The notes beneath the pieces are model-generated. The model had not been told where the DNA came from, did no database searches, and saw only the letters and a program-made list of their open reading frames with translations. Shown one piece after another: positions 2,398 to 11,815 of a stretch of DNA of 64,000 bases; within the stretch, counting starts at the first letter, position 1, and each line of letters begins with the position of its first letter. The position numbers and the translations under genes are program-made. Source of the DNA: a virus (taxonomy: Duplodnaviria; Heunggongvirae; Uroviricota; Caudoviricetes); the IMG/VR virus record IMGVR_UViG_2579778842_000017, positions 1 to 64,000 of that record, one strand, 5' to 3'.

Positions 2398-4098
2398 TTA
2401 TACAACTTTCCATTGCGCATCGCCGATCAGCCACGCATCAAACAAGCTCATATATCGAGCTCGCAAACGACAGACCTTGTAATCTTCCCCTACACCATCC
2501 AATGAGATCGGTTTACCCAAAAATGTAAGAGAGGTTAAATTTCTTCCCCGTAATATCAACTCGATTTCCTGCCCGTCATAAGCCTGCCCCTGAGTGGTAA
2601 TGTTTGCCCCGTTGGTTACTGGGATGTAAAACGAACTATGGCCGCTTCTTACCGGAACTGGTGCTGGTAATGTAATTGTGCGAATGTCATTTTCCAGACC
2701 ACTCACTACAGCACCACTCACATCACCGATTAGGGCGGTTAGGCGGTCGCGCTTATGCTCAATTGTTAAGCCTGAGTTGCTGCTGTCTGCATCATAAAAG
2801 CCAGTTGAACGATCTCCGCGTAGGTTTACGTTCATCACACGGCAGCCTGATGTGTTTTTTGCTCTGATGCAAACAGTGCCGCTTGTAGATGAGTGATGAG
2901 AACTGCTTACTAAAGCTCCCCTGGATGATGATAGATTGATATCCGCAATTTTACATGCCTCGTAATATGTATTCCCCATTAGCTCTGTTCCTATGGCCCC
3001 GTGATCCATAGTTCCATATCGTTCACAGTTCTGTATAAAACCACCATCTAAAACTACCGCCGTAGTGTTAAACGTTGTCGAATTATCGACATCAATTCCA
3101 TTCAACCCGTTTCTTATCACTAGGCCATAGTCAGGGAGGACGCCGCCTGGGTCACTACTGTATAAATTGGGATTGAGGATCTTGCAGGCATTAGCGCCAT
3201 TCTGATAGATAAGCCTCGTAGATCCTGTCCCACCATTCATTATTTCTGGATTGTCATTTTTAAGCCCGTAGCAAAGCAAGCCAACTCTCATGCCAACGCA
3301 GTCCCGGCCTAACTGCATATCTACCCACAATCCAAAAATGCCCGAGTTATTACGGCATTTGATTAAATCAATTCCGACAACTCCAGCCTTTCCGTTAAAA
3401 TCAATTCGAGGGTTATGCACCTGTATATTTCTAATATAATCAGTGCCAGCAACAGCTGGATCAGCTTTAAATAGCGTAATATTGTCTCTATTTGCATAAA
3501 AAATAGCGTCTCTTGACTGATGGATCGTTGTATTCCCGTAATAGTAATATGTTGCATCTACCGGATAAATTCCTGGCATGAAATAAATATCTCCACCAGA
3601 GCTCAGTAGCGACTGAATATCCGAGTGAGAATAACTTGGCTCAATGATAACGGCAGGTCGGGTTAGTTTTTTTGGAGCGTAGTCATCATAGATGCTTTGC
3701 CCACCCCATGAACTCCCTACTAATTTGTCCCCTCCAGAAGATGCCAATCTCTTCTCAAACTGATCGGGGTCATACTTCAGCACATTTGGGAATTTGAACT
3801 GCTGCGCCCCATATGCATCATAAACAGCCATAGAATGGCCTTGCACAGTTACGAATTTGGCAATCTGTCCGTTATATACAGGGTAACCAGCGGCGTTAAT
3901 GATGATTGGTTGCGAAACAGGAACGTGAGAACCGTCTTCATTCTCTACATAAACCTGAATCTGGTTTTCAGGATTTACAGGGTCAGTGTCAATTTTACCG
4001 ATATAAATTTTGCCATTGGCAACCGCTTTAAAAGAACGAGCCATAGTGAAGAGTTGCGAAGGCATCGATACAATCACATTAGCTGTAATGTCTGTCAT
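2398..4098 (-). CDS. Tailspike protein, P22-like N-terminal head-binding domain with divergent receptor-binding C-terminus
   Basis: 566 aa; N-terminus [82 protein letters not shown] matches the P22 gp9 head-binding domain. Confidence 0.85.
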
Positions 4099-4198: not shown

Positions 4199-5100
4199 TC
4201 AGTAGTTATGTACTGAAGGAGGTAATTCTTTATTCTTAAGTCTCATCCATGCGGAAAGATTCGTTGGTCCGTCTGGCTCATTGATATCAACATCTCGTGT
4301 GTGGTTTATTAAAACGTCTCTCGCCATTCCGATAACATACGAGAATTCATGACCGTAGTCGTAGCATCTGCCGGAATAGTTCGATTGAATTTGTTTTAGC
4401 GCCGGATACAGTTCGCGGAATAATGCCTGTGAGCGGTTGGCATAATCCCATAACCATACAAGGCTGTTTGCTTCTTTTGCAGAAAGCTCGTTGGTTTTCT
4501 TCTCTTGTTTGCCAATGAACTCACCTTCAAGCACTACCCTGTGGATGTACTCTACTGCTTGTGGTATCTGAGATGCATCAAGCTCTTCAATACTTTCCAC
4601 ATTGAAACGCTGATGAATCATTGCATAAGCTTCTGGGTACATTAGATGCTTTTTGCTGACTAGCATATTTACAGCATCACGAAGCGGAGTCCTGTCATCA
4701 ACAGATGTTTTCTTCCGTGCATTTGCTGCCTCTCCCTTTGTCCAGTAGTCATGCAGCACAGTAAAGCATTCTTCCTGGTACTGAATCAGTTTATCGCGGA
4801 TGTCAGCACGAACTTTCTCAGGGTTGATGCTGAACAGCCATCCATTTAACTTCTTCAAAGGAAGGCAGAGTAGCTTACGAAGCTTACCATCAGCGGCAAC
4901 CATGTTCATATGAACACAGTTGAATTTGCTAATCTGCTTCATGAGTTTTGTTTGCTGCGTTGACCAGCTCATTCCGAGGTTTTCAACGATTGGCTTCATC
5001 GCAACATATGCAACTCCGGCAGCCATGGCGGTGATAATTTGCTGACCGTTGAATGGCACGTAAGAGGTGTTCACTGCTTCTAAAATTGCTATACTATTCA
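4199..5100 (-). CDS. ant: Antirepressor Ant (immI region)
   Basis: P22 Ant-like sequence starting [21 protein letters not shown]; position arc-ant-tailspike as in P22; ORF track extends to a GTG at 5167. Confidence 0.8.
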
Positions 5101-5333
5101 TGTTGGTTTTTCTCCACGGATTTACCGACAACCGAAGCCCTGACTGTTCCAGCAGTTGGGGCTTCACTGTTTTGATTTCTTTGCCGCATCAAGCATCACT
5201 TCTGAAAACGTGCGCTTGCCACTGAATACTCTTTCTCTTCTCAATTTTTCGTTCGTGCCAAATGATTCGCCATGAACAAAATTTGGTCTTAAAATGGTAA
5301 TCGCAATCTCTTTGACTACTGCATCCAAGCGAA

Positions 5334-5486
5334 TCACACCGTTACCCCCTCTCTCTTCAGGCTGTCTATCAGGCGCTTGATAACCTCTGAGTTAAACGAC
5401 CTGCACTCTTCCTTTGCCCTGCTACCGATAGCATCCTTTAACGACTGCGGCATCCTTACCAAAATCTTACTTATTTCTTTCTCCAT
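5334..5486 (-). CDS. arc: Arc-like ribbon-helix-helix repressor
   Basis: about 50 aa from internal Met (MEKEISKILVRMPQSLKDAIGSRAKEECRSFNSEVIKRLIDSLKREG), aligns with P22 Arc (GRSVNSEI motif); immediately upstream of ant. Confidence 0.75.
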   Translation of the reverse strand: MEKEISKILVRMPQSLKDAIGSRAKEECRSFNSEVIKRLIDSLKREGVTV

Positions 5487-5600
5487 GTTACCCTCCACGC
5501 AAACAACTCTTTTCGAATACAAAAGATAGCAAAGTGAGTATATCTAGTCAAAATTTTTTTGCATACACTTTGATATCAAATTGAATACCAAAGGTGTGAT
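5487..5600. promoter_or_regulatory. Divergent Pant / Pmnt promoter-operator region
   Basis: AT-rich 114-bp gap between divergently oriented arc and mnt, the position of the overlapping Pant/Pmnt promoters and Mnt/Arc operators in P22. Confidence 0.45.
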
Positions 5601-5849
5601 ATGGCAAAGGGTGTGTCAATTTCTCCAACTACGGTAAGAATCCCTGAATCTTTGCGCGAGGCTCTTGCTGTTAGAGCATCAAAAAATGGTCGCTCTGTTA
5701 ACTCCGAGATCGTCATGATTTTGCAAGCCGCGATTGATGAAGATAGGTCGCCAAAGTCAGTTGAGTCATTTGCTCAGCAAGAAGCTGACAAATTCAAAGA
5801 GGCGCTGCTGGAGACGCTGAAAACCATGTATGGTAAGGATGATAAATAA
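5601..5849 (+). CDS. mnt: Mnt-like repressor
   Basis: 82 aa; TVRIPESLREALAVRASKNGRSVNSEIVMILQAAI aligns with P22 Mnt N-terminal RHH domain; C-terminal LKTMYGK resembles Mnt. Confidence 0.8.
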   Translation: MAKGVSISPTTVRIPESLREALAVRASKNGRSVNSEIVMILQAAIDEDRSPKSVESFAQQEADKFKEALLETLKTMYGKDDK

Positions 5850-6385
5850 TGCTGCACACAATTCATTTCTTATGCCCCGTTAACACCGCCACTGTTGGGC
5901 AACTTCAGAACCACTGTCTCACCGCATTATCTCAAGGCGCAACTGAATTAAATATCCATATATCAAGTCAGGGAGGGGAAACTGCCGCTGGCTTTACTGC
6001 GTATAACTTTCTTAAGTCACTCCCTGTTACCGTTAGAACTCACAACATAAGCAATGTTGAATCCATAGCTAATATCGTTTTCCTGGCTGGCTCAGAACGT
6101 TTCGCAAACCCATTATCAAGATTCCTGTTACATCCTCTATTATGGGGCTTTGCCACCCCAGCCGCCGACCATGCCAGATTGAGAGAGTACGGGAAATGCC
6201 TCGATAACGATCTTGATCGCTTCGTTGAGACGTTCAATATCGACATCGGAACCCATATTAGGTGGGCATCCCTGATAGCAGACTCGACCATTTTGGATGC
6301 TAACAAGGCTCTTGAGCATGGCATAATTAATTCCATAAAAACTGCAAGGCTGGTATCCAATCAGGCAAACTGGTGGGTTGTTTGA
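5849..6385 (+). CDS. ClpP-like (S14-family) serine peptidase, translationally coupled to mnt
   Basis: 178 aa; by-eye alignment to E. coli ClpP across the core (HISSQGGETAAGFTAYNFL / THNISNVESIANIVFLAGSERFANPLSRFLLHP / ILDANKALEHGIINSI) with Ser, His and Asp of the catalytic triad at aligned positions; ATG overlaps mnt stop (TAATG). Confidence 0.7.
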   Translation: MLHTIHFLCPVNTATVGQLQNHCLTALSQGATELNIHISSQGGETAAGFTAYNFLKSLPVTVRTHNISNVESIANIVFLAGSERFANPLSRFLLHPLLWGFATPAADHARLREYGKCLDNDLDRFVETFNIDIGTHIRWASLIADSTILDANKALEHGIINSIKTARLVSNQANWWVV

Positions 6386-6410
6386 TGGGTAAATCATGAT
6401 TACTCCTTAT

Positions 6411-6438
6411 AAAAAACCCACCTGACGGTGGGTTTTAT
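6411..6438. terminator. Bidirectional Rho-independent terminator between convergent operons
   Basis: AAAAAACCCACCTGACGGTGGGTTTTATT: GC hairpin flanked by A-run and T-run. Confidence 0.7.
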
Positions 6439-6860
6439 TAGTGCTTGTATAGCTTGAACTCCCTGTCGAGCCATAAGACATAAAAAGTGGCTCCTATCTT
6501 ATAACCAACCATAGGTGCCTTAGAGCAAAATCTGAACGCAATGAAATCCACATCTTGAGTAACATGCTTAGGAATCGGAGCTTTTATCGCGTTTCTGGCA
6601 ATTTTTTCCGTCCCAAGCCCGTGTTTATCAGATTTTCGTATCTCATCCCATGACATCCGACTTAACCTGAACAGCCTATCTGCAAATGCTGCCTTTTCAT
6701 GCTTTTGGCAGCAATCTAGGCAATACCCCTTTTGTAGGTATCTAAGAGAAAATACAGGCGGACTTTTGTCTACATCATGAGATTCGTGATGGATAGAGAG
6801 GCCAACAGTAGCAGAGCTCTCTTTATCCCTCTGTTTTATTCTTCCCTTAACTCTAGACAT
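6438..6860 (-). CDS. Hypothetical protein, downstream partner of the Panacea-domain gene (candidate toxin/effector)
   Basis: 140 aa, basic, Cys cluster CLDCC; starts 5 bp after the stop of the upstream DUF4065 gene; no family recognised. Confidence 0.55.
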   Translation of the reverse strand: MSRVKGRIKQRDKESSATVGLSIHHESHDVDKSPPVFSLRYLQKGYCLDCCQKHEKAAFADRLFRLSRMSWDEIRKSDKHGLGTEKIARNAIKAPIPKHVTQDVDFIAFRFCSKAPMVGYKIGATFYVLWLDREFKLYKH

Positions 6861-6865
6861 ACACG

Positions 6866-7315
6866 TCAGTTAATTAACGTTTTGAAAAAACCTTTCATAG
6901 AATCAAGTGTGATTTCTTGGCTAACCGCACCCTCAATGTAAGCATCTTTCCATGGCTGCTCTTCGTGAGTCATATTGCGCAGTTTCCAGGCAGAAAACTG
7001 ACCATAAACTTTATACACCTCATCCAGCAATTCAATTTCATCTTCACTGAATTTTTTAGCGTCAAAGTTTTCTGGCGCAGGTAAAGCTCCGTTACCACAG
7101 TCCCTATATTTACGATACAATTCAGGAACTACTGGCCCATGCATCCAGGCTTCAATTTTCTCATTAAATAGCGGCTTACCCAGAAGAACCAGAGAAAACC
7201 CTTGGGCATAATACGTCAACTTCTGAATTTTTAGGTTAGAGATAATGTCGCCACTTTCTTCATCGCAATGCGCCAAGAAGTAGTCGGCGACATCAAAACA
7301 AGTGAGCATAAACAT
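6866..7315 (-). CDS. Panacea (DUF4065, SocA/GepA-like) domain protein, candidate antitoxin
   Basis: 149 aa; KIQKLTYYAQGFSLVLLGKPLFNEKIEAWMHGPVVPELY matches the DUF4065 core motif as I recall it. Confidence 0.65.
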   Translation of the reverse strand: MFMLTCFDVADYFLAHCDEESGDIISNLKIQKLTYYAQGFSLVLLGKPLFNEKIEAWMHGPVVPELYRKYRDCGNGALPAPENFDAKKFSEDEIELLDEVYKVYGQFSAWKLRNMTHEEQPWKDAYIEGAVSQEITLDSMKGFFKTLIN

Positions 7316-7445
7316 ACCTCCATCTTGATAGCCGCAGCTATGTATACAACTGTGTCAAGTTGCATTTAATACCATAACAAAGCTGTCATCAATCCTTCAG
7401 AGGCTAACTTACAACCACTTTATCGACACGTTTAAATCATTACAT

Positions 7446-7502
7446 TTCACATTTACTGCATTTTCGCCGAAGTTACCTATAAGGTAATGTCACATTTCCT
7501 GC
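7446..7502. repeat. Two direct copies of TCACATTT(A/C)CTGCA upstream of the Panacea operon
   Basis: copies at 7446-7459 and 7489-7502 in the AT-rich intergenic region; candidate operator sites. Confidence 0.4.
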
Positions 7503-7683
7503 AAGTTTCATGCAATGTTGAAAAGTGAGCTATTCACTTTTCTATGACACCAAACACCAAAAATAGCACTTTTTGCTAAATCATTCGCCCAAGTTGTGGA
7601 TGGTTTGTCGTTGACACGTTTTCACACACCACTCCACCAATAAAGTATCATCTGGTATCCTGCTCAAAACTAAGGAGGTTGGT

Positions 7684-7872
7684 GTGAAGAAAAAATTTGT
7701 AAACGTTGCAAAGTGCGCAATTTTTATATTTTTTATGACCTTTTACGGATTTAGTGCCGGAGAAGGTTTCGATCGTGATGCCAATGCATTCAGTTTCTTT
7801 TGTCTGTCTATAGTGGTCATAATTGTATGGGTGGAATTAAAGCAAACATTGTTTCATGTGCTAGGGAAATAA
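7684..7872 (+). CDS. Small hydrophobic protein (two predicted TM segments) at the sieA-equivalent position
   Basis: 62 aa, GTG start 3-4 nt after AAGGAGG; hydrophobic stretches CAIFIFFMTFYGF and FSFFCLSIVVIIVWV. Confidence 0.4.
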   Translation: MKKKFVNVAKCAIFIFFMTFYGFSAGEGFDRDANAFSFFCLSIVVIIVWVELKQTLFHVLGK

Positions 7873-7889
7873 CCATCCATGGCATTTAG

Positions 7890-9755
7890 TCACTGCTGTG
7901 TTGCCTCAGTGGCAAGCAGCGGTCTGATGGCATTTGCAGCGTTACTTAATGCTCTTTCATAGGCTGGCGTTCCTGCTTTGGTGTTTGCCAGACGTAAGAG
8001 CGCATTCCTGGCCATAGGGCTTTCATAAACCCTCGACATAAGGCCAATCCCTGTTTCCCCAGCCAATAGCGCGCCTCCGGTTTTTAGGTTACCAATAACC
8101 CTTACCAAAGGCGCGAGTGTCATGCCAGTCTTCGTCACAACATTAGCCTCAGATGCTCTTTTGGTAGCATCGAGAATAGATAACATCCCCTCTATCTCTT
8201 TTCCGTTCTTCCCACCAAATACAGTTTTAAACACCTGACCATTTGCTTGTTTTTGCAGCTTGCCAAGCTCGGTCATCATTTTCTGAGGGCTGTCACCTAC
8301 CTTGTCAGCTATTTTGCTGATATATGCCGCCCTTAGCATGTCTTTACCTTTTTGATCGAGTTTCCCGTACAATCGAGCTATATCTGACCCATATTGTCCA
8401 TACACAATGGTATTTACAGCCTCGGGAGTTAAATCTCCTTTGTTTAGAACGTTTTTAAGGCGCGTTTGAGTTGCATGTGTTGCCATTTTTGCATAATCAG
8501 CTTTTCCCGCTCTCCATGCTGAAGCATCTTTTGGGCTAAGTCCTTTCGCTATAGATTTACTAAGGCTATTGGTTAGCGAGTTATAGACCCTGTCGACCAT
8601 TGTTTGCGACATTGATGGCAGAACTGTACGATCGCCTTTTACGTCAATGCGGAACTGAGTTCTCAGCTTATCAAGTAACTCAAAGGCATCATCTCCATTT
8701 GTTATCTCCTGAATGGCATTCTTATAATCATTAAGCGCAGAAATGGTCTGGGTGTCAGAAACACCTTTAAGTTTCCCAAGTTCGTTTACTGCTCCGTCGA
8801 TAGCTCTTATGGCGCCACTTGTATCAACTGGCTTTCCAACCATTCTTCCTGACAGGCTGTTTAGTTTTGACTTGGCTAACGATTTTTCCCTTGCAACGCC
8901 TGACTTTAGACTATCAACGACTACAGATGGATCGTAGTCGCCGTATTTTTCGGTGAAGCGATTAACAAGCTTGGTTCTGGCATCCTGCTGTGCGGCTCTC
9001 ATTGGTCCAGTACCAGCTATGACTCCTTCTGAGTAACCCTGCAGTTGATTGCCAAGTTTTGTTTTTGGAGGAACTACATCCGATGTCATAACTGGTACAT
9101 CTGCCGCAGCGGCACGCTTGAGCAATTGCTGATCTGCTGGTGATATTTCGCCACGAACAGCAGTAATTCCACGCCCTATTCCCTTTGCTGCTGCGGAAAG
9201 AACCCCCTGAGCGGCAAGGTTAACTCCTGCATTTTTAGCTGCATTTTGTGCGAAATCGCCTTTCTGATTTGCGGCCTCTGCCAGTGATCCAATAGCCATG
9301 CTTCCTGCCGTTCCAACTCCTGGAACTAAATACCCGCCAATTGTTTCTCCAGCTTGCGCATAAGGGTCTGTTGGTCGATCTACTGGACGATAGACATCGT
9401 CCAAAACCTTGGGGCCACCAAGCCCCTGGCTGATTGCATTAATCAGGCTTGCGCCACCCTGCAATACGTCAAATGGTATGTTTACCAGACCACGACCAGC
9501 CTGCTCTGCAATTTGCCCTGCACTTTGACCACCAGTGAGCCAATCGCCAGCTTGTTGCATCAATGATGGTTCTTCTTTCTGCTGCTGAGGCGGAGGGTAT
9601 GCTGCATAAAACTGATCTCTTGCTTCAGCCCATTTGTCACCAGCCTTAGGGGCAACAACCTCATCAAAATATTGCGCTTGAGCCTGTGCTTTCTGTTCTT
9701 CAGTTAACGCCTGATACTGTGGAGAGGCGATAACATCTTTCCATGCTTTAGCCAT
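7890..9755 (-). CDS. Ejection (DNA-transfer) protein, P22 gp16-like
   Basis: 621 aa; size and position after gp20-like gene as in P22 order 14-7-20-16. Confidence 0.8.
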   Translation of the reverse strand: MAKAWKDVIASPQYQALTEEQKAQAQAQYFDEVVAPKAGDKWAEARDQFYAAYPPPQQQKEEPSLMQQAGDWLTGGQSAGQIAEQAGRGLVNIPFDVLQGGASLINAISQGLGGPKVLDDVYRPVDRPTDPYAQAGETIGGYLVPGVGTAGSMAIGSLAEAANQKGDFAQNAAKNAGVNLAAQGVLSAAAKGIGRGITAVRGEISPADQQLLKRAAAADVPVMTSDVVPPKTKLGNQLQGYSEGVIAGTGPMRAAQQDARTKLVNRFTEKYGDYDPSVVVDSLKSGVAREKSLAKSKLNSLSGRMVGKPVDTSGAIRAIDGAVNELGKLKGVSDTQTISALNDYKNAIQEITNGDDAFELLDKLRTQFRIDVKGDRTVLPSMSQTMVDRVYNSLTNSLSKSIAKGLSPKDASAWRAGKADYAKMATHATQTRLKNVLNKGDLTPEAVNTIVYGQYGSDIARLYGKLDQKGKDMLRAAYISKIADKVGDSPQKMMTELGKLQKQANGQVFKTVFGGKNGKEIEGMLSILDATKRASEANVVTKTGMTLAPLVRVIGNLKTGGALLAGETGIGLMSRVYESPMARNALLRLANTKAGTPAYERALSNAANAIRPLLATEATQQ

Positions 9756-11149
9756 TAATCACCCCATAGTGAAGAAAAGTTACTGCTGGCTGCTGGCTGT
9801 GATACCTGTGTAGGTTGAGATTGCTGCCGCTGAGATTTACCAACATTAACGTTATATTGTTGGTTGTAATTGTTGGTGTATTCCTGAATCTCACGAATCG
9901 ACTGCTGCATAGCCTCCGGGCTTGAATAGTCAACCTGCGGCATCCCCTGAAAATACATCTTCGCTTCTGCAACGGTGTTAATACCACTGGCACCCATATC
10001 CCTTGCTGCCGCCACACCCTGATTCTGCATTCTGCCCTGAATACGTTGTGCTGAGTTATATAACTGGCGCTGCTCTTTTCCTGTTAATCGGCTGCGAACA
10101 TCAGCACCAATTGCTGGATTACCTGCACCGCCTGTCATTCCTGTCATGAAATCGAGAGCAGAAGCGTCTGCATTTGCGATCGCGTCGATATCCTTCTTCA
10201 TGGCATAGTTTTGTGCTGATGCAGACGATGTTGCAGGCGCTGCGATTGAACTGGCAGGAACGCGAACCATATTCCCCTCGTTGTCGATGCCTTCGTAGAA
10301 CGCATTAGCCCCAGCGCCGTGAAGCTTCCCACCTACCGTTACAGTTCTGCCATCTGATAACTGAACTGTACGCTTATCATTCCCAGCGATTCCTCTTGTT
10401 GACGCTCGCTGCATTGCCAAATCCTGACCTCGTCGCGCAGTAGAAGCAGATAAGTCCTGACCGCGCATCGTGATGTTCTGACCTCGTGCTGTTAGCGCCT
10501 CTCCAGCCTGATTGCTGCGGATTGTCTCTGCCAGCCTGCCTCGGTCAATTTCACGACCAGCCATCTTGTCCTGAACATTGAAGTAATCAATCGGACCAAG
10601 AGCAGCCATTCCAAGGTGATCAACAAACTCTGTGAAACCTTGTGGATTTTGCTGATACATTTTCGCCACATCCAGAGGGTCTACTCCGGCACGAGTAAGC
10701 TCAGATGAGTTGTTCTGCAACCATGACATCATGGCTTCTGGAGATGAAGCTGCCAGTCTGGCACTTGCTGCCAGTGTGCCGACAGTGGAACGCTGGTCTT
10801 CATCGACAAATTTCATGCCGTTTCTTACAGCGTCAAACTGCTCAGGATACTGTGATGCCAGTTTTCGCATTGCATCGCGGTCACCAGATGTATATGCATC
10901 AGCATAAGCCTGCTGAAACTCTTGCTGTCGCTTCTGCTGATCCATCTGCTTATACATATCCATGACAGATGAAATGCCCTGCAAAGCCTGCAAGCCAACG
11001 TTATTACGTCCTGAACGCTCCATCTCGTTATTCTGTCGAATGTATGCAAGCGTGGCGTCTGCATCACTTGCTCTTGGAGCGTTGGAGTTCATGCCGCCTA
11101 ACCCGGCAAGAAGCGCGCCTGAATTACCAGCCTGTTGCCATGTAGCCAA
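9755..11149 (-). CDS. Ejection protein, P22 gp20-like
   Basis: 464 aa (P22 gp20 about 471), synteny. Confidence 0.8.
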
Positions 11150-11161
11150 GAGACACCTCCA

Positions 11162-11815
11162 TTAAAAAAGTGAACCAAGAAGACCGACGCCAGCACCAAT
11201 TGCTGTACCCCAACCAGGCATGATTGCAGTACCTGCAGCTGCACCTGCTGCCGCTCCACCCAAGGCGCTCTGAAATCCTGATGGTTTATTCGCATTAGCC
11301 GCAGATGCTGCCGCCTGCTGTTGATACAATTGGCTGACGTTGTTGGCATAGTTCTGCCCGGCGTTTGCCTGACCTGTAAGAGCGCCAAGGCCGATATTTG
11401 CCAGATTGTTGTAGTTGTTCATCTGACCTGACAGCCAGTTTTGACCGAGTGTAGGTGCGATTGCTGCTAACTGGTTTCCTGTTGCTGTAGAGCCTAATCC
11501 ACCCGTTGCCTCTGCTGCTGCCAGACTCTGGTAACGCGCCTGCCCTGCAAGGTCTTTGTACTGCTGGGAGTTGTAATACTGGTTAAGCGCCTGACCTTGC
11601 CCCTGAAGAGAGGAAAGATTTTGCAACTGTGATACGTACTGCTGAGCGAGTGGCGTGAACGGTGCAAGGTTCTGCATGTTCGTCTGCCACATTTCACGCT
11701 GCAGTTCGATACCTTTTTCAGTTGCGCGTGCCTGGGCTTTTGAACCGCCATCACTGCCACCTTTGCAGTAAACAGCTTTGCTGAGGTGCTTATTGGCAAT
11801 CTGGAAAATTAACAT
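11162..11815 (-). CDS. Ejection protein, P22 gp7-like
   Basis: 217 aa, Gly/Ala/Gln-rich with hydrophobic C-terminal region, synteny. Confidence 0.75.
   Translation of the reverse strand: MLIFQIANKHLSKAVYCKGGSDGGSKAQARATEKGIELQREMWQTNMQNLAPFTPLAQQYVSQLQNLSSLQGQGQALNQYYNSQQYKDLAGQARYQSLAAAEATGGLGSTATGNQLAAIAPTLGQNWLSGQMNNYNNLANIGLGALTGQANAGQNYANNVSQLYQQQAAASAANANKPSGFQSALGGAAAGAAAGTAIMPGWGTAIGAGVGLLGSLF

Follow-up and report, generated by a model that had tools for sequence, protein, structure and literature searches.

The studied region lies in a 64,000-nt stretch of viral DNA (positions 1 to 64,000 of IMG/VR record IMGVR_UViG_2579778842_000017, here called the window), which is a P22-like (Lederbergvirus-type) prophage of Escherichia coli; compared with strain ETEC4085, the region is 100% identical. 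The genes for the tailspike and for the ejection (DNA transfer) protein gp16, followed by genes 20 and 7, are encoded on the minus strand, and the interval between tailspike gene and gene 16 is occupied by ant, arc, the sar RNA, mnt and accessory genes (Table 1). This layout fits the described 'ant moron', in which ant, arc, sar RNA and mnt are combined with variable accessory genes that oppose the late operon. The 'ant moron', or immI region, is known for its variation among P22-like phages (PMC2629481; PMC8022706). The sar RNA is present and, thus, the ant control circuit of the prophage looks intact. The mnt-like repressor gene overlaps the start of the gene encoding a ClpP-like protease (window 5601-6385, plus strand), and the same pair occurs in a Salmonella locus (L016); a protease that is co-transcribed with the maintenance repressor is unusual.

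Further towards gene 16, a gene for a Panacea-domain antitoxin (PanA) is followed after 5 bp by a co-directional gene for a protein of 140 aa, and a terminator at about 6412-6436 closes the pair. The 140-aa protein has weak matches to PADLOC NsnC (2.7e-7) and to the NCBIfam MAG6450 family (2.5e-5). The two genes are probably a previously uncharacterised PanA-PanT pair that is carried in the immI region. Divergent from PanA, across an intergenic region that had been described as AT-rich and 368 bp long and is so (38.6% GC compared to 48.6% for the window), lies a small open reading frame (ORF) of 62 codons with 34.9% GC, which converges with gene 16 at a distance of 17 nt.

Table 1. Positions of genes and sequence features at the locus (window coordinates unless a locus is named)
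Feature	Position	Strand	Remarks
Tailspike gene	2398-4098	minus	late gene
ant	4199-5167	minus	
sar antisense RNA	5102-5168		Rfam RF00262, 84 bits
arc	5334-5522	minus	
mnt	5601-5849	plus	
ClpP-like gene	5849-6385	plus	178-aa serine protease, PF00574 at 4e-12
PanA partner, presumed PanT toxin	6438-6860	minus	140 aa, co-directional with PanA; phrog_8366
PanA, Panacea-domain antitoxin	6866-7315	minus	divergent from the 62-aa ORF; PF13274 at E 2e-24
Intergenic region	7316-7683		368 bp, from the PanA start (7315, minus) to the ORF start (7684)
Direct repeat copy 1, TCACATTTACTGCA	7447-7460	plus	at the boundary of the diverged left and the near-invariant right part
Inverted repeat TTACC-TATAA-GGTAA	7473-7487		between the two repeat copies
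Direct repeat copy 2, TCACATTTCCTGCA	7490-7503	plus	
Perfect 9-bp palindrome, GAAAAGTGA-N5-TCACTTTTC	7520-7542		missed by the sequence-only reading
sieA-type leader, TGGTATCCTGCTCAAAACTAAGGAGGTTGGT	7653-7683	plus	97% identical to the P22 sieA leader
62-aa gene	7684-7872	plus	GTG start; predicted two-helix inner-membrane protein MKKKFVNVAKCAIFIFFMTFYGFSAGEGFDRDANAFSFFCLSIVVIIVWVELKQTLFHVLGK
3' cassette boundary element, CCATCCATGGC	7873-7883	plus	abuts the stop codon of the 62-aa gene
3' element at other loci	L028 4190-4215; L073 3975-4000		further: L006 3076, L017 2319, L071 2137, L076 659, L079 1551
Cassette flanks			5' AAGGAGGTTGGTGTG; 3' CCATCCWTGGC
Gene 16, ejection protein	7890-9755	minus	homologs annotated P22-gp16 family; PF26808 on the neighbour in homolog loci
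Gene 20	9755-11149	minus	
Gene 7	11162-11815	minus	

The 62-codon ORF is a conserved gene

A sequence-only reading of this DNA had proposed a 62-codon ORF that starts with GTG behind an AAGGAGG motif, and an ORF with these properties is present, with the Shine-Dalgarno (SD) sequence at 7672-7678 ending five nucleotides before the start. Salmonella enterica and Serratia fonticola have homologs that are likewise 62 residues long and 79-82% identical. In comparison with these, dN/dS ranged from 0.14 to 0.34 at a constant length of 62 codons, synonymous changes were in excess (Fisher P 0.0005-0.017), and the SD sequence and start codon were found at the identical position in all three diverged lineages, while all other frames of the ORF hold stop codons. 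Conservation in related prophages, which had been named beforehand among the points at which the proposal might fail, was found in the form of both homologs and purifying selection.

The encoded protein matches the profile of phrog_21338 from end to end (residues 1-62 on profile positions 1-62; E 4.3e-45, 152.9 bits) and is a member of this family; as the family has no assigned function, the membership says nothing on the mechanism. A profile search of 1.84 billion representative proteins returned just 12 cluster representatives, all of 61-66 aa save for longer gene calls and fragments. Across the family, K10, F14, M18, G22 and W49 are invariant, and S37, F38, I43, I46, I47, E51 and K53 are nearly so. 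Gene calls of 87-103 aa that extend further upstream (P0001-P0004) were considered as alternative forms of the gene and rejected, their extensions varying by context and preceding the conserved SD sequence. Sequence searches of Pfam, NCBIfam, PADLOC and PDB with the protein gave no match.

Among 5426 complete E. coli genomes, 89 (1.6%) carry the ORF at full length and with at least 98.9% identity. The annotation pipeline PGAP omits it in nearly all of these 89 genomes, and it is also left unannotated in the records of phages phiv205-1, JEP4 and UPF_BP1, as might be expected for an untranslated chance frame in AT-rich spacer DNA. However, the purifying selection, the constant length, the conserved SD sequence and start, the existence of a PHROG family and the remote homologs in the same position all argue against a chance frame, which we regard as extremely improbable. 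Accordingly, by its pattern of conservation, 7684-7872 is a genuine conserved gene.

The protein is predicted to form a hairpin in the inner membrane

The proposal that the product is a hydrophobic protein with two helices was borne out by two approaches. Hydropathy analysis revealed two hydrophobic segments at about residues 5-25 and 35-52, and AF2 modeling placed helices at residues 2-24 and 29-61 (mean pLDDT 71), the conserved residues of the family falling inside the predicted helices. The N-terminus is rich in lysine and the loop (GEGFDRD) is acidic; based on the positive-inside rule, the protein probably adopts a helical hairpin with both termini in the cytoplasm (N-in/C-in). A lipoprotein was also considered and rejected, as the protein is without a lipobox ([LVI][ASTVI][GAS]C): residues 8-11 read VAKC, with lysine at position -1, and Cys11 varies in remote homologs.

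The gene occupies the sieA slot

The gene had been placed at the position at which P22 carries sieA, and this placement turned out to be exact to the base pair. Window positions 7653-7686 are 97% identical to the P22 sieA leader including the GTG, with no homology beyond this start codon. When ten different contexts were aligned, TGGTATCCTG..CAAAACTAAGGAGGTTGGTGTG was the sole invariant block, and the leader was found in most ORF loci of IMG/VR. It contains a probable extended -10 motif (TGnTATCCT, 7653-7661). A consensus scan for promoters and terminators in 7200-8000 returned none that reached the threshold, and in a scan by position weight matrix (PWM) the leader scored 6.7, which is about the window median; thus, no promoter can be assigned with confidence. 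In P22, sieA and 85 bp upstream of it suffice for function, and transcription of the gene in lysogens is weak (PMC10883804).

At least eight alternative cassettes start at the same GTG behind the sieA leader, and most of them are envelope-targeted. Next to the 62-aa protein of the window, they comprise SieA itself (164 aa), a membrane protein of 75 aa, a YobH-family protein of 68 aa, a signal-peptide protein of 129 aa that is similar to Sf6 gp38, two different proteins of 109 aa with an N-terminal hydrophobic segment and an otherwise coiled-coil-like, heptad-rich sequence, a soluble protein of 140 aa, and a protein of 149 aa. Among the occupants seen, the 62-aa family is the most recurrent.

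Immediately after the stop codon of several unrelated cassettes a short element is found that has the consensus CCATCC(A/T/G)TGGC and is CCATCCATGGC in the window. It follows the YobH-like and 149-aa cassettes and a 77-aa cassette as well, and it is kept after homologs of the 62-aa gene of only 32-53% identity. It is better conserved than the preceding coding sequence. In tandem cassettes the element runs into the next SD sequence and start (TAG-CCATCCATGGCTAAC(A/G)GGAGGTTG..TG), and P22 sieA carries a degenerate copy (CCGTCCTTGGC). Since the end of gene 16 in phage Emek is identical but is not accompanied by the element, the latter is part of the cassette rather than of gene 16. Cassettes are probably swapped by recombination inside the short flanks that they share on the two sides, which would explain junctions that lie exactly at the start codon.

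Homologs keep the interval between gene 16 and the tailspike gene

At the loci examined, homologs of the 62-aa gene with identities as low as 32% map to the gene 16-tailspike interval of P22-like prophages. They are encoded opposite to the late genes, and the distance to the stop codon of gene 16 is usually 10-18 nt. At five loci with remote homologs (L072, L077-L080), the homolog is the sole gene between gene 16 and the tailspike gene, and at two exceptional loci (L028, L030) one extra cassette separates it from gene 16. A tblastn search with a type A query found no P22-type SieA within 3 kb of the ORF in the 31 viral contigs that bear it. In many prophages, the gene immediately upstream of the 62-aa gene is mnt or encodes a CI/LexA-like (S24) repressor, an arrangement that points to expression in the lysogen. 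In Serratia fonticola (L008-L011, about 4643-4999), a gene with a Rap1a domain (type VI immunity-like, PF18602) is located between mnt and the 62-aa gene. The family appears to be restricted to P22-like prophages. In one Salmonella locus (L027, GCA_010566485.1, 3299-4189), the 62-aa gene accompanies an S24 repressor gene beside siphovirus-type tail genes, and gene 16 is missing; this is the only context seen that is not P22-like, and it represents either a hybrid prophage or a rearrangement.

Repeats of the intergenic region

Two copies of TCACATTT(A/C)CTGCA, 43 bp apart from start to start, had been reported for the intergenic region, and these were recovered as the only two zero-mismatch matches in the 64 kb. 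The similarity extends to 15 of 17 positions (7444-7460 compared to 7487-7503), and of 1000 shuffles of the 368 bp that preserved dinucleotides, 10 contained a direct repeat as good as this, which places it modestly above chance. The TTACC-N5-GGTAA inverted repeat noted along with it is likewise present, though on its own it is at the level of chance, with about 2.8 perfect 5-bp inverted repeats with loops of 3-8 nt being expected per shuffle; when either strand is folded, it sits at the apex of an imperfect hairpin that spans about 77 nt. The perfect palindrome at 7520-7542 stands out more clearly: perfect arms of 8 bp are expected 0.04 times, giving P of about 0.007 for the palindrome. It carries two further TCACTTTT octamers, and four TCAC(A/T)TTT octamers fall inside 7447-7541, out of five in the whole window. 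The octamers are phased at 43-44 bp (7447, 7490, 7534), with an inverted one at 7521, and the palindrome itself follows 44 bp after repeat copy 2.

The PanA-side part of the region (7316-7445, 130 bp) occurs in two haplotypes that differ by about 10% (window compared to L004-L006 and L017-L019), whereas the 238 bp from about 7446 rightwards are almost invariant in both. The two strands of 7440-7660 folded somewhat more stably than shuffled sequence (z values of -2.1 and -2.7), the segment being without sequence variation for covariation. A scan of 5000-8200 against Rfam (E up to 1) returned the sar RNA and a terminator-like fragment only and left the intergenic region empty. The motif TCACATTT is identical to the extended CRP half-site; a CRP site was rejected, as neither copy has a TGTGA partner at N6 and the spacing within the palindrome is N5. 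Distant PanA homologs (from Gilliamella, Liberibacter and others) showed no TCAC(A/T)TTT cluster upstream, and are too diverged to inform on the matter.

The repeats travel with PanA and not with the 62-aa gene

The sequence-only reading had found the repeats consistent with operator sites, in a region that drives the 62-aa gene. Such a role might be considered on the grounds that the direct repeat exceeds chance, that four octamers cluster within 95 bp and that the repeat-bearing part is nearly invariant among relatives. However, the distribution of the two elements does not bear this out. The repeat region (7400-7560) is present in 85 of the 5426 E. coli genomes and the ORF in 89, while the complete combination occurs in 13; in IMG/VR, the repeat module was found at 2 of 31 ORF loci. 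Across at least eight upstream contexts, no more than the final 20-55 bp in front of the ORF are retained. Conversely, PanA adjoins the repeat module in all 32 IMG/VR loci of the module, most of which carry another cassette, and it is found next to the module in E. coli loci as well. In P15-25 and two other genomes, a natural deletion that spares the ORF has taken out PanA, the partner gene and half of repeat copy 1. The P15-25 sequence had also been considered as an independent module that begins at 7455, which was rejected: it is a deletion with one end inside an Emek orf61-like gene and the other at repeat copy 1. The repeats are, in addition, located 180-240 bp upstream of the start, and no promoter candidate from either the consensus or the PWM scan overlaps them. 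We therefore consider operators of the 62-aa gene to be improbable. The repeats are outside its expression unit and belong to a segment that accompanies the divergent PanA operon; the best reading is that of sites that act on the PanA side or serve another regulator, with a recombination scar as a live alternative.

Discussion

The 62-aa gene shares with P22 sieA the leader, the GTG start, the strand and the convergent orientation next to gene 16 (Leavitt et al. 2024, PMC10883804). Like sieA, it is a prophage-strand gene between genes 16 and 9 that encodes a predicted inner-membrane protein and appears to be limited to P22-like prophages. In contrast, the two proteins have no sequence similarity beyond the start codon, the FxRYPxEAxxFNK motif of SieA is missing from the window protein, and SieA with its 164 aa and four or more helices (about 160-200 aa and four or five helices for SieA proteins) differs markedly from a protein of 62 aa with two. 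Size, helix number, motif and sequence thus place the 62-aa protein outside the SieA family, and position alone matches. Since the interval between genes 16 and 9 is a general site of tolerated accessory genes in P22-like phages (PMC2629481), position alone is weak evidence of function. The 'orf62' of phage L, which is mentioned in PMC8022706, was considered as a possible instance of the same gene and rejected: it encodes 97 aa on the strand of gene 16 and takes its name from an ORF number in ST104, so that only the name coincides.

In size and predicted inner-membrane topology, the protein is comparable to small two-helix exclusion proteins of other phages, such as Imm of phage T4, and the proposed action is likewise at the step of DNA entry. 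Imm, however, belongs to a lytic phage with a different genomic context. A further point of comparison are PanA-PanT systems, in which some PanTs are small membrane proteins (Kurata et al. 2022, PMC8832971), and a Panacea gene is located only 368 bp away. Nevertheless, the ORF is divergent from PanA, not co-operonic with it and independently distributed, and it does not form the two-gene arrangement with PanA that is characteristic of a PanT.

From these data it might be hypothesized that the 62-aa protein is a prophage-expressed protective factor of the inner membrane that would act, most likely, by blocking the DNA-delivery conduit of superinfecting P22-like phages. We hold this reading with about even confidence. 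The gene would be transcribed constitutively and at a low level in the lysogen from the sieA-type leader, with transcription starting a few bases 3' of TGGTATCCT, and in other prophages would be reached by read-through from the upstream repressor genes. The protein would then insert into the inner membrane and have a protective role at the envelope of the lysogen, most likely by SieA-like interference with the gp16/gp20 conduit of the incoming phage. SieA itself acts from the same slot against this conduit in P22-like phages (PMC10883804).

The main rival to a protective factor is a lysogenic-conversion factor without a role in phage exclusion, that is, a small inner-membrane protein that would modulate a host transporter, sensor kinase or envelope property, as is the case for many bacterial small membrane proteins. 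The evidence for a real gene, for membrane location and for the lysogenic strand would fit such a host role equally well, and the Salmonella locus without gene 16 is in line with it. In addition, the slot is not dedicated to exclusion, as it also holds YobH-family, secreted and soluble proteins. On the other hand, the family appears to be limited to P22-like prophages and is kept in the gene 16-tailspike interval down to 32% identity, at five loci as the sole gene, and this persistence suggests a phage-specific role. We consider a host role to be possible but doubtful.

Its small size and hydrophobicity might also suggest that the protein is a membrane toxin, either of a type I-like kind under the control of antisense late transcription, as the gene is convergent with the late operon, or a membrane disruptor neutralised by the nearby PanA, as membrane toxins of this sort exist (PMC8832971). 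However, PanA already has a co-directional partner of 140 aa, the PanA-linked region is missing in 76 of the 89 E. coli genomes that bear the ORF, and PanA occurs with at least eight other cassettes. With regard to the type I-like form, the protein has two helices as opposed to the single helix typical of type I toxins, and the Rfam scan of 5000-8200 found no dedicated small RNA, sar being the sole RNA family, while antisense late transcription is expected from P22 biology. Furthermore, the gene has a strong SD sequence, and in many prophages it shares its transcript with mnt or an S24 repressor gene, which are active in lysogens. Due to this co-transcription and to the distribution independent of PanA, a role as toxin is unlikely, and we would give it little credence.

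Beyond a protective role of the single protein, it might tentatively be speculated that the 62-aa family is an exclusion protein unrelated to SieA and, at the same time, that the slot is a cassette-exchange site at which envelope-defence genes are swapped at their start and stop codons; that both apply we regard as rather unlikely. The 5' flank of such exchanges would consist of AAGGAGGTTGGT-GTG-AAG and the 3' flank of the stop codon plus CCATCCATGGC, the two being joined into a linker where cassettes stand in tandem. In the relevant passages of accounts such as PMC2629481, neither the shared SD-GTG and CCATCCATGGC flanks nor the 62-aa family as a recurrent occupant is mentioned.

The sieA gene is absent from two thirds of the P22-like phages that have been sequenced (Leavitt et al. 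2024, PMC10883804), and the present analysis shows what occupies the slot: interchangeable small proteins, mostly envelope-targeted, with a common leader and start codon. To specialists, a different small gene at this position will not be surprising, since the variable 'ant moron' is well known. What seems to be under-appreciated is the recurrence of one family in the interval, its near-universal omission from annotation and the conserved cassette flanks. Annotation pipelines skip the family although 1.6% of complete E. coli genomes carry it and it also occurs in Salmonella and Serratia. If exclusion proves true, the protein would offer a minimal two-helix tool for the crossing of the inner membrane by the gp16/gp20 conduit, and it would be relevant to host range, both in phage therapy and in transduction. 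The cassette flanks provide a concrete and testable example of how mosaic phages exchange single genes and leave the neighbours undamaged. In several Salmonella loci (L012-L016, 4483-4968), the sieA slot is filled by a predicted lipoprotein of 161 aa (MKKSLLIIPLLLAGC...; phrog_6067), and the 62-aa gene follows directly 3' of it with its own GGAGGTTAGTGTG, so that this lipoprotein represents a second candidate envelope factor in the same operon.
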